Notes under the pieces: model-generated | Databases searched by the model: none | What the model saw: the letters and a program-made list of their open reading frames with translations, nothing else | What the model was told of the DNA's origin: nothing | Shown here: one piece after another, positions 4,980-29,945 of the stretch | How the letters are laid out: each line of letters opens with the position of its first letter | Numbering within the stretch: position 1 is the first letter of the stretch | Position numbers and translations under genes: made by a program | NCBI GenBank assembly: GCA_965215015.1 | Contig: OZ244042.1 | Coordinates: 1,216,001 to 1,280,000 of the forward strand | Length of the DNA: 64,000 bases | Origin: Candidatus Poribacteria bacterium | Lineage (GTDB): Bacteria; Poribacteria; WGA-4E; PCPOR2b | Direction of reading: 5' to 3'

Positions 4980-5531
4980 ATGGCAGTCCAACGTTTATCA
5001 GTTACTCAAATTGAAGCCCAGATGGATCAATTAACACAGAGTCCCCAAGACCTCGGCAGCCTCGAATATATCGTCCTTCGCCTGCCCGACGAACAGCGAG
5101 CAACCCGCCAAGAAGCGGAGGTCAGCCCCGATGGCGGGCTTGATGGAGACCGCTGGGCACGACCGAACAGTCCAAATCCGGGTGCCCAAATATCTGTGAT
5201 GAATTCTCGATTTCTCAGGATAATCGCCGGGGACGATGCCCGAATGCCCCTCGCCGGTGATAACCTACTCGTTGACTTGGATCTGAGCGAGGAGAATCTC
5301 CCCGCCGGCACTCAATTACAGATCGGCACCGCCACTTTTGAAGTCACAGATGTTCCACATACCGGCTGTCAAAAATTCCAACGCCGATATGGCAAAGATG
5401 CGCTTGATGTGGTCAACGCAGAAACCCATAAGCCCCAACGACTCCGCGGCCTGTTTATACGCACAATCCAAGCAGGAAAAATCCAAGTTGGAGATTCTAT
5501 CCGTAAGCTAACTGCTGCCAATCCCCACTAA
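4980..5531 (+). CDS. MOSC domain-containing protein
   Basis: GGLDGDRW, LAGDNLLVDLDLS, PHTGCQKF, RLRGL motifs; AAGGAG RBS before ATG 4980. Confidence 0.85.
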   Translation: MAVQRLSVTQIEAQMDQLTQSPQDLGSLEYIVLRLPDEQRATRQEAEVSPDGGLDGDRWARPNSPNPGAQISVMNSRFLRIIAGDDARMPLAGDNLLVDLDLSEENLPAGTQLQIGTATFEVTDVPHTGCQKFQRRYGKDALDVVNAETHKPQRLRGLFIRTIQAGKIQVGDSIRKLTAANPH

Positions 5532-5721
5532 CGTTTCCGTTCAGCGGTGCATCTATACATTCCCATATAGCTTGGGGGTGCTCATAAAGTAGTGGACACG
5601 CTCCGCGTGCTGTAACCCCCACAACTTTCCAGATTTTAACAAAAATTCACTTTAGGGTTAAATCTCCGATTGCTAATAGGGGGCTTTAGGTTTGGGATAC
5701 AATCGTGCTTTAGCGTTTTTT

Positions 5722-5750
5722 CTTGCTTTTGAAAGCGTCTTGTGCTATAT
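5722..5750 (+). promoter_or_regulatory. Sigma70-type promoter upstream of the candidate ncRNA
   Basis: TTGCTT-N17-TATATT with extended -10 TG. Confidence 0.5.
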
Positions 5751-5759
5751 TTTCTTTTA

Positions 5760-6105
5760 AACACTATCAGTGGTCCGCGTTCCAGTGGCGTGCTAGGGTC
5801 AAGCCAACCACCCCCGACTAGAACCGGGATAATGAAGTTGAAGTTTTCCACACAGAAATGGGAAACTAAATATCAAAGAAAGAATCTTGAGGGGACACTA
5901 GTCTGAACGAATTCTTCCACACTTGGGTGGTTGTGCGTTAGGGCCGGCACCGCGTACTAGACATACGTGTAACCGTGTAAACGCCTCACGGGAGTTCGCT
6001 ATAAACGAATAAGAAAAACCACTTTGGCGGAAGATCCTACGCATTGTTTATTTGTACCGGAGAAGCTGGAAAGAATCCCAATGCTTCAGCTTTGGGAGCG
6101 GTCAA
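5760..6105 (+). ncRNA. Candidate ~345-nt structured RNA terminating in an IS605 right end; possible LE remnant at ~5680-5703
   Basis: Pairs TTCCAG/CTGGAA, CAACCACCC/GGGTGGTTG, GACTAG/CTAGTC and TGCGT-AGG/CCTACGCA; RE hairpin AGAATCCCAATGCTTCAGCTTTGGGAGCGGTCAA. Confidence 0.5.
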
Positions 6106-6149
6106 CTTGATTCTTTCAAGACGGATATGATAAAATTAGAAACCCTTTT

Positions 6150-6233
6150 GCCGGAGTGGTGAAATCGGTAGACGCGCTGGACTCAAAATCCAGTGAGCTT
6201 AGGCTCGTGTCGGTTCGAGTCCGACCTCCGGCA
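6150..6233 (+). tRNA. tRNA-Leu(CAA)
   Basis: GCCGGAG acceptor stem, anticodon loop CT-CAA-AA, long variable arm, GGTTCGAGTCC T-arm. Confidence 0.97.
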
Positions 6234-6240
6234 TTGACCC

Positions 6241-6275
6241 GCCATATAGCCTGTTGAGGCTATATGGCTTTTTTT
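6241..6275 (+). terminator. Rho-independent terminator after tRNA-Leu
   Basis: GCCATATAGCCT-GTTG-AGGCTATATGGC followed by a T-run. Confidence 0.8.
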
Positions 6276-6276
6276 G

Positions 6277-7113
6277 TCACGACCACACAAAAATCTCATG
6301 ATCGTCCGAAGAATAGCCAATGAACACCGCCAGAACAATTCGAGGATTATTCCCCTCCACCGGAGGAACTTCGTGGATGCAACGGGTGTTGAAGAAATAC
6401 AAATCGCCCGGCGAGAGTTCGACCCGACACTTTTCGATACCGTTTTCAGCGGCGTACTCGTGAAAGGTGCCCTCAGCAATATGTGGCTGCACCTCCTCCG
6501 TCCACAAACATCGGTGCAAAATCGCCTGCGTTCCTGTGTCAAATTCATCCGCGTTTTGCAGACACAGTACACCCGCAAATTGGTGCTCAAAACGGTATAC
6601 GGCGTAATCGGTCCGTGCTTCCCGCAGCCTCACATGATCAATGTGAGGTAGGTAGAGCTGGGTGTGATAATGGATACGAAAAATCGCAGGTCCATAACGG
6701 CGACCATCTGGCTCGTATGCTGTTCTGACCTTTTTGCTCGGTGCAAGATCCGACAGCGCGTTGTAAATGAGGTCCACTGGATTGTCAAATCCCTCAAATA
6801 GGAATTTGAACAGGTGATGCGTGGCTTCCGAATGTTGGAAGAAACGCTCTTGGTCCTTCCCTCGAATCCCTAGACTCGTGCCGATGTCGGTTCTCACCCG
6901 TTCGTCTCCACCATACGCGCTATCTTCTGGGTTACGCGCCAGTCCCATGTTGTAGAACCGTTGGATCAGTGGAGTACATTGATCTGGGTCATAAGCGCCT
7001 CGAAACATGATAGCAGGCATCTCTGCCTGAGACAAGGCATAAAGCGGGTCCGTATAATGCGCCCGAATCGTCTCCAAATCCGGCTCAACCGGTATCCAAT
7101 TTTCCACAGCCAT
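6277..7113 (-). CDS. 2OG-Fe(II) oxygenase family protein
   Basis: HxD (PHID)...H (IHEV)...R motif arrangement in a double-stranded beta-helix context. Confidence 0.7.
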   Translation of the reverse strand: MAVENWIPVEPDLETIRAHYTDPLYALSQAEMPAIMFRGAYDPDQCTPLIQRFYNMGLARNPEDSAYGGDERVRTDIGTSLGIRGKDQERFFQHSEATHHLFKFLFEGFDNPVDLIYNALSDLAPSKKVRTAYEPDGRRYGPAIFRIHYHTQLYLPHIDHVRLREARTDYAVYRFEHQFAGVLCLQNADEFDTGTQAILHRCLWTEEVQPHIAEGTFHEYAAENGIEKCRVELSPGDLYFFNTRCIHEVPPVEGNNPRIVLAVFIGYSSDDHEIFVWS

Positions 7114-29293: not shown

Positions 29294-29945
29294 TGACATA
29301 CTCCCACACCCGAAAGAGTGGGACTTCTCGCCCGTTCCTTTCGGGTGTCGAATTGCTCCATCAACGAGATGAGCCATCCAAAGATGGGCTTACAACCTCT
29401 CCTGAGAGGGTGGATGCCCCAACCCTAAAGATATTGACCGCCGCATTGTGGTCTCTATCCAACTGTGTATGGCAGTTTGGACACTGCGTCATTAAACATC
29501 TTTTGGTAAGCTTCAGTACGAGCTGCCACGTCCTGTATGGCTTGGCAGCTGGTTCCAATGTGCAAATCTATCTGTCTTTTTGAATTTAGCTATGTGTTAG
29601 CTATGTGATTGATGAGTCTAAACTTGTGGATAGACTTGCCATATATCGCATAGCAGCGTCGCTGAAGGGCAATACAATGATTCCATACCTCAGTGTGTCC
29701 CTCTATTCGTCTGGTACAACTCACGATTCCCGTGATGGCTATACATCTTGAACTTGTGGGTTTTGATGGGATGCGTCCTTTGTCCTTCATACCCGATTCA
29801 GTGGGTGTGGGGACACCAACGCGCGTTGGTGTCCCCGCGAAGGACAAAGCAAGTATACCCCATTTTGCCTACAATATCAACGTTTTTTAGATGTTAACAC
29901 CATTAGCCAATCTGTATTCCCAGCCTAAAGGATCGGGATACAGAT
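29294..29945 (-). mobile_element. tnpB: Internally deleted IS605-type tnpB element (LE, tnpB N- and C-terminal remnants, omegaRNA region, RE)
   Basis: Frameshifted N-terminus IKTHKFKMY../WNHCIALQRRCYAIYGK; C-terminal CPNCHTQLDRDHNAAVNI; RE TCCCACTCTTTCGGGTGTGGGAGTATGTCA; LE hairpin TGTATCCCGATCCTTTAGGCTGGGAATACA. Confidence 0.85.
29852..29880 (-). promoter_or_regulatory. Promoter inside the tnpB remnant pointing to M48-glnD
   Basis: TTGATA-N17-TATACT on the minus strand. Confidence 0.55.

Follow-up and report, generated by a model that had tools for sequence, protein, structure and literature searches.

A single-copy, probably PATE-type IS200/IS605 derivative with an orphan interior beside the promoter of a tRNA-Leu gene

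Non-autonomous derivatives of the IS200/IS605 family form a class that is already described; it comprises the PATE-type elements, including versions that carry an omegaRNA. PATEs were first defined in Haloquadratum walsbyi. As set out in the available part of PMC3119063, they have no terminal inverted repeats, carry palindromes near their termini, do not duplicate their target and are too short to encode a transposase. The same part of that paper also describes 'heterogeneous' PATEs, PATE origins by deletion of a core, and genomes whose IS1341-type genes are mostly pseudogenes. Protein-less, PATE-like elements of Geobacillus stearothermophilus often encode omegaRNAs for use in trans, according to the available text of PMC10055086. 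IStrons are a further system to which structured RNA between ends of the IS605 type invites comparison. The rule given for group I introns and IStrons in the available sections of PMC13565253 is that U is the last base of the 5' exon, G is the last base of the intron, and a group I core is present.

The element described here was found in a window, a 64,000-nt stretch of a Candidatus Poribacteria genome that was analysed as a whole. It occupies most of the 617-nt spacer (5532-6148) that separates the gene for tRNA-Leu(CAA) from an ORF whose last base is 5531 (Table 1). The element is one discrete insertion. It is absent from all eight orthologous loci of the same genus, each of which retains the synteny of the ORF and tRNA-Leu; the distance between the ORF match and the tRNA-Leu match is 63-456 nt in these loci versus 590 nt in the window. 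Four of the eight (L023, L024, L025 and L039) have TTTTAA followed at once by CTTGATTC (CTTGATT...), which is an empty site, and the remaining four have TTTTACC or TTTTGCC and then CTTGATTC. The letters of the left flank (5626-5639) continue straight into CTTGATT in L023, L025 and L039. It is because the orthologous loci have an empty site that the window can be said to carry a discrete insertion. There is no target duplication, the two junctions having no more than a single base (C) in common; the insertion lies 3' of a TTAA-type target and closes with GTCAA. The letters AAC occur at both junctions, which leaves an uncertainty of 1-3 nt in placing the element, and the end was set at 6105, the family's other right ends having variable bases after GTCAA. 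A preliminary description of the sequence had recognized here, beside tRNA-Leu, a unit of the IS200/IS605 type that has no ORF and closes with an IS605 right end, and homologous ends, empty sites and the lack of a family-matching ORF agree with it. Its extent of 5680-6125 is replaced by the wider one, 5640-6105, that the relatives' empty sites define.

The right flank is the conserved upstream region of tRNA-Leu. The stretch 6106-6136 is found upstream of tRNA-Leu in all eight orthologous loci, and a whole-genome BLAST of the spacer against 40 relatives marks 6106-6148 as conserved there in many same-genus genomes. A promoter scan places a promoter-like site at 6107-6136, with a -35 box TTGATT (6107-6112) and a -10 box TAAAAT (6131-6136). 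This site overlaps the flank that would serve as the guide of an omegaRNA, a coincidence that had been pointed out before and that holds.

Contigs from other sequencing runs contain the same insertion. In a DNA contig of a close strain (run X5) the element is complete; the single substitution in its 466 nt is 6005 A>G, one base is deleted at 5638, and the flanks compared differ at 4 of 368 bases. This low divergence is compatible with constraint, and also with chance or a recent common origin. The substitution falls in a predicted loop beside a stem and is uninformative on structure. Contigs of run X7 span both junctions with zero differences. The contigs of RNA-library runs X17 and X19 that lie on 6046-6113 carry other upstream letters and therefore belong to other right ends, and none covers 5638-6045; as the organism may be missing from those libraries, this is uninformative on expression. 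An X19 contig of 148 nt extends over 6104-6227 with 5 differences, and upstream of that it has the relatives' empty-site letters. The label 'sponge metagenome' on runs with a small share does not count as evidence for where the organism lives.

Table 1. Features of the insertion, its surroundings and the related 5' module (window positions unless a locus is named)
Feature	Position	Strand	Basis or remark
Left flank and target site TTTCCAGATTTTAA	5626-5639	+	TTAA-type target directly 5' of the element
Whole insertion: protein-less IS200/IS605 (IS1341-group) derivative, 466 nt	5640-6105	+	Empty sites in relatives
Left end (LE)	5640-5735	+	Homologues: LEs of TnpB elements of types C and B, and LE of L016, an element with TnpA
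13 extra bases in 5' arm/loop of the LE hairpin	5671-5683	+	Gap in 7/7 other rows of alignment A5; placement alignment-dependent
Promoter-like site: -35 TTGCTT 5723-5728, 17-nt spacer, -10 TATATT 5746-5751	5723-5751	+ (inward)	Read from sequence
Orphan interior	5775-6060		Without detectable homologue, family-matching ORF or RNA family
Right end (RE), closest to C-type TnpB REs	6061-6105	+	Profile matches; hairpin and GTCAA
Right flank: would-be omegaRNA guide (~6106-6121) and conserved tRNA-Leu promoter	6106-6136	+	Promoter scan
tRNA-Leu(CAA)	6149-6234	+	ARAGORN; Rfam tRNA 57.5 bits
tRNA-Leu terminator	6241-6268	+	Terminator scan
5' module examples	L036:1625-1706; L060:329-410; L048:373-454; L054:287-371; window 29777-29846	- (window example)	

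By their sequence, the ends of the element derive from the TnpB-only IS1341-type elements of the genus and are type-C-like. A profile of the relatives' 5' regions matches the window at 5628-5735 with an E of 2.4e-14, and this stretch and 6061-6105 are the only ones matched by the relatives' 5' and 3' nhmmer profiles. The ends are 75-100% identical to those of relatives, and parts of both (5684-5731 of the LE, 6071-6105 of the RE) are dispersed repeats present in many places in 18 of 19 same-genus genomes (BLAST). At the places inspected in relatives, the same kinds of LE and RE bracket TnpB-only elements of ~1.4 kb, whose proteins fall into three types (A, B and C), as well as internal-deletion derivatives and ORF-less elements of 230-500 nt; ORF-less derivatives as a whole span 230-980 nt. 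These family elements sit behind TTAAC, TTATC or TTACC. Full-length TnpB elements with the same kind of ends, which the preliminary description had proposed as a check, are at hand as TnpB-only IS1341-type elements that are abundant in the genus. Like those elements (types A, B and C), the element in the window has an LE with a promoter, an RE with a hairpin and GTCAA, and a TTAA/TTAH target, and its ends are closest to type C; unlike them, it is without tnpB, the pseudoknotted 5' module and the omegaRNA scaffold.

Of the palindromes near the termini, the one at the RE is intact, whereas the LE is homologous with its main hairpin disrupted and unfolded. The RE hairpin pairs TCCCAA (6076-6081) with TTGGGA (6092-6097) and is followed by GTCAA at 6101-6105, as had been described; as DNA it folds at -6.2 kcal/mol, and 28 of its 28 bases are identical to the type-C REs of genomes G018 and G012. 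The opening of the LE resembles type C in alignment A5. As single-stranded DNA, the LE of the window folds at -3.7 kcal/mol (z +0.41), versus -17.4 (z -5.2) for L060 and -14.2 (z -4.6) for L061. The window hairpin is broken because the 13 extra bases (~5671-5683), together with substitutions, disrupt its 5' arm.

The promoter-like site of the LE was apparently inherited with it. Its -35 and -10 boxes share columns of alignment A5 with those of B-type and D-type elements (-35 TTGAGC and TTGATT; -10 TG-GTATAC and similar), and a TG at 5743-5744 extends the putative -10 TATATT. The site scores 8 of 12 consensus letters and is not listed by a simple scan with a threshold of 9/12. Since it occupies the same columns as the promoters of relatives, it is best regarded as a part of the LE and not as a chance site. 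The promoter TTGCTT-N17-TATATT of the preliminary description is thus present, one base from where it had been placed, and aligns position for position with that of the TnpB relatives.

The interior is a different matter from the ends. Similarity to relatives fades at ~5736-5774 on the left and at ~6061 on the right, leaving an orphan core of ~290-330 nt. BLAST of the interior against its own 5.94-Mb genome found no copy elsewhere, only the ends of the element recurring, and BLAST against 40 relatives found no homologue. The best match among 158 other genomes of the order had an E of 0.0015, which is chance level, and 175 other genomes of the phylum gave none at E up to 0.001; plasmids and phages gave none by blastn. 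Exact-word probes, which detect near-identical copies only, were equally unproductive. A 21-mer (6026-6046) matched two loci in metagenome contigs, which proved to be one identical unrelated sequence with 23 bases in common; a 21-mer had no match in GTDB contigs, a 20-mer had one 22-base chance match there in an unrelated MAG, and a 19-mer had no match in viral contigs. Two further candidates for the content of the core were rejected. The segments 5805-5933 and 5934-6043 are bounded by inverted repeats of 8-9 nt as a nested MITE would be, and neither recurs in any genome searched. The nine bases at 5878-5886 (GAAAGAATC) are common with 6069-6077 and could suggest a degenerate second right end, with nothing similar beyond those nine bases.

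It is likely that 5640-6105 is a single-copy, non-autonomous, PATE-type IS200/IS605 element that is now most probably an immobile relic. The element arrived as one unit 3' of TTAA, a single base upstream of the tRNA-Leu(CAA) -35 box, and left that promoter intact. It has lost tnpB, the conserved 5' leader module and the omegaRNA scaffold, and has ~290-330 nt of unrelated non-coding sequence in their place. Uniform decay does not explain the core, because identity to relatives is 75-100% at the ends and the interior has no similarity to them at all. The contrast calls either for a putative replacement or acquisition event or for selection confined to the ends; the simplest guess would be that the core was replaced or that foreign DNA was captured. 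From its sequence the element is presumed to be immobile now, since TnpA would have to bind the broken LE hairpin and the searches revealed no intact TnpA. Should the left-end promoter be active, transcription would continue through the RE into the promoter region of tRNA-Leu and the tRNA itself, a read-through predicted because no terminator lies between; the only terminator-like site on the + strand from 5400 to 6400 is that of tRNA-Leu, and none precedes it. The 3' part of such a leader RNA would have the geometry of an omegaRNA (RE plus flank), with no recognisable scaffold and no partner nuclease found.

The comparison with described elements supports this assignment in part. Like the PATEs of Haloquadratum, as characterized in the available part of PMC3119063, the element has no terminal inverted repeats, no target duplication and no room for a transposase, and its RE has an IS605-related palindrome. 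Unlike them, it is single-copy and bacterial and the palindrome of its LE is broken, and its core is neither a remnant of fused termini nor a recognisable piece of a parent. Copy number counts against the PATE reading: PATEs are usually multi-copy, whereas this element is unique in its genome and its interior is in no other genome searched. The resemblance to the Geobacillus elements, as far as the available text of PMC10055086 describes them, lies in ends common with the TnpB elements of the lineage, in the absence of a protein, and in an RE and flank at the position of the guide; the difference is that the element in the window has no recognisable omegaRNA scaffold and that no intact TnpB was found.

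The genome appears to be a graveyard of the IS605 family, whose elements here all seem decayed. It has 19 matches to PF07282 and 4 to PF01385, all in open frames of at most 109 aa and several with stops, and the ~80 tblastn pieces with similarity to TnpB types A, B and C are all partial. Of two TnpA matches, one has a stop and the open frame of the other is 91 aa long. PF07282, PF01385 and tblastn of types A, B and C revealed no intact TnpB, searches that a TnpB of an unqueried type lacking a match to either family would escape. Ten other right-end-like sites of the genome were inspected, and their interiors are decayed or deleted. The 5' module has up to 88 copies in relatives versus 16 in this genome. 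The window itself holds a second IS605 relic at 29370-29846 on the - strand, in which the 5' module is joined to fragments of a type-B TnpB (residues 3-97 and 337-383); it is apparently an internal-deletion derivative.

The strongest of the alternatives is that the element is a stand-alone, large omegaRNA, transcribed from its own promoter and acting in trans to direct a TnpB-type nuclease to cut the empty site (TTAA then CTTGATTCTTTCAAGA). This is improbable. It draws on the retention of the inward promoter-like site, an RE intact to GTCAA, the absence of a terminator before the flank, and an empty site that relatives do contain; moreover, ORF-less elements of relatives with the same ends keep covarying RNAs of the omegaRNA type, and such elements have been described in print (PMC10055086, in its available text). 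However, homology to the scaffolds of types A, B, C and D is lacking by nhmmer: profiles made from the 3' regions of A, B/D and C find an alignment at 6061-6105 and nowhere else, with no scaffold in the interior. Covariance model R2, built on the type-C omegaRNA region, scores 87-149 bits at five true scaffolds of this genome, one of which is a training sequence. At 6001-6105 it scores 32.6 bits, with the RE alone aligned and 72 core positions skipped, a score like those that R2 gives to the right ends of other types (19-42 bits). Covariance model R1, which represents the pseudoknotted module that follows the promoter and precedes the start of tnpB in types A, B and C, has a best score of 8.1 bits (E 0.2) in 5400-6300, against 16 matches elsewhere in the genome. 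To judge by these models, the interior is neither the omegaRNA scaffold of the family nor its 5' module. The description of the RNA as omegaRNA-like has consequently found no scaffold homology by either method, and its action in trans, which had also been put forward, meets a genome in which no intact TnpB was found. The folding of the interior, considered below, is at chance level and not strand-specific, and the lack of any homologue found also counts against an omegaRNA.

Rfam adds little on this point. At gathering score, the whole window yields four tRNAs only. At E up to 10, the region 5450-6300 yields the tRNA and chance-level matches to SNORD78 (E 1.6), SAM-II (E 3.5) and a frameshift element (E 4.9). 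The models for HEARO, IS605-orfB and group I introns, named in the preliminary description as those to scan, give no hit on the + or the - strand of this region when E up to 10 is allowed. Rfam is equally silent on the bona fide TnpB elements and scaffolds of relatives. Its silence is therefore uninformative on omegaRNAs, because true scaffolds of relatives are also missed; it does speak against HEARO and group I introns.

It is very improbable that the interior is an RNA as yet unseen, whether the guide scaffold of an undetected RNA-guided protein or a self-standing ncRNA, that was captured by IS605 ends, is transcribed from the left-end promoter together with tRNA-Leu and has its 3' end set by RNase P cleavage at the 5' end of the tRNA. 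A related proposal, and a highly unlikely one, is that the interior is a new, self-standing structured ncRNA captured as cargo between IS605 ends and expressed from the LE promoter. That the interior is non-coding and lies behind a conserved promoter position would suit such a cargo, as would its lack of relation to the usual contents of these elements and the few differences in the close strain. The absence of an Rfam family at E up to 10, and of a homologue in any collection searched, argues against it. So does folding. The long-range helices of the preliminary description are all where it put them: TTCCAG (5780-5785) with CTGGAA (6066-6071), CAACCACCC (5805-5813) with GGGTGGTTG (5925-5933), GACTAG (5816-5821) with CTAGTC (5898-5903), TGCGTTAGG (5934-5942) with CCTACGCA (6036-6043), and AGTGGT (5769-5774) with ACCACT (6018-6023). 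They do not go beyond chance. A perfect stem of at least 9 bp occurs in 40 of 200 dinucleotide shuffles of 5755-6105, and the 14 stems of at least 6 bp observed in this segment are matched or exceeded in 55 of 200. For 5755-6110, the z-scores of the minimum free energy are -1.78 (+ strand) and -1.76 (- strand), and in either case 3 of 100 shuffles fold as well. A structured RNA would thus have to be claimed for an interior that folds at chance level and equally on both strands, and the suggestion of a new ncRNA class for a sequence with no homologue in genomes, Rfam or the other collections searched; neither claim is retained.

Less likely again is that the interior is tnpB, tnpA or other coding sequence decayed past easy recognition. 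In its favour, tnpB fragments and internal-deletion derivatives abound in the genome, and alignment A5 shows a likeness between the first ~10 bases that follow the -10 box (CTATCAGTGG) and the opening of the 5' module (CTTTCGGTGG). However, tblastn of TnpB types A, B and C and of a TnpA fragment against the interior had a best E of 0.59, and Pfam found no family in 5 ORFs and 10 stop-free segments. The ends are still 75-100% identical, and equal decay would leave the interior recognisable. The longest start-to-stop ORF overlapping the 466-nt element has 71 aa, and no transposase is encoded. The preliminary description had named decayed tnpA/tnpB coding sequence as the alternative to its own view; tblastn and Pfam detected no such remnant.

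There is next to no prospect that the element is an ORF-less IStron, with a group I intron ribozyme between IS605 ends: there is a loose fit in size (~345 nt), in long-range pairings and in a possible pseudoknot, and IStrons have their ribozyme in the 5' untranslated part (available sections of PMC13565253), but no Intron_gpI model matches at E up to 10 on either strand, the element lies in an intergenic spacer, and its junction letters misfit group I splicing, since it is preceded by A (or C) and ends GTCAA/A (or C) while group A IStrons follow T and end TCAG according to the same sections.

With the PATE-type element inferred here, a well-described class gains a further protein-less IS200/IS605 derivative, which as it stands matters little. 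It does provide a clean case, bounded by empty sites, of an element that settled a single base away from the -35 box of a conserved tRNA promoter and left the promoter whole. The exchange of its core for unrelated sequence would mean that ends of the IS605 type are able to bear foreign cargo, or at least that turnover is much faster in cores than in ends. Were the interior a true functional RNA, it would be an example of transposon-borne ncRNA cargo; no finding here points there.

The relatives offer structured RNAs of their own. Between the left-end promoter and the tnpB start codon of TnpB types A, B and C lies a conserved module of ~80 nt that consists of three nested helices and a pseudoknot helix. 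Six sequences of the module have 95.8% of cells paired versus at most 52% in slid controls, with changes on both sides in 10 of 28 pairs and covariation in 5 of the 6 pseudoknot pairs. R1 finds it in 18 of 19 same-genus genomes, and Rfam has no match on seven loci that contain it. The 3' strand of its outer helix, GAAAGAC, recurs just before the start codon, and because of this repeat a switch that occludes the RBS is suggested.

An ORF-less type-A family of ~400-435 nt is represented by L041-L047 (genomes G005, G013 and G015) and L026 (G004). In each member a promoter is joined to a variant form of the 5' module and to the tnpB 3' end together with its omegaRNA region; the RNA part, from promoter to GTCAA, measures 320-335 nt. 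Compensatory changes are present in 16 of 94 predicted pairs among seven copies. These elements are the lineage's real units of a promoter and a ~330-nt structured RNA.

Small hairpin repeats (CCCGAT..ATCGGG type, ~16-35 nt) occur at various places inside the IS605-type elements of relatives. They are seen as insertions in L042, L045 and L046 compared with L041, and also in L061, L091 and L093. Such inserts recall the small mobile repeats that target the PATEs of Haloquadratum (PMC3119063, available part).

The spacer upstream of tRNA-Leu, which measures 63-456 nt in relatives (L022, L033, L037 and L032 among eight species), looks like a hotspot for small mobile elements. In L033 it contains a different insertion of ~300 nt, flanked by a repeat of ~20 nt (AAATAACCCTCAATTTCCAG). 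Directly upstream of the insertion site in the window, at 5567-5626, is a REP-like hairpin repeat of ~50-60 nt with GGGGG..CCCCC arms, which has 36 further matches in the genome and is absent from the spacer in all eight orthologous loci. Elements of the family adjoin tRNA genes elsewhere as well: two tRNAs (L054:1-140) lie directly upstream of the type-B element of L054, and L097 has a right-end remnant downstream of two tRNA-like genes.
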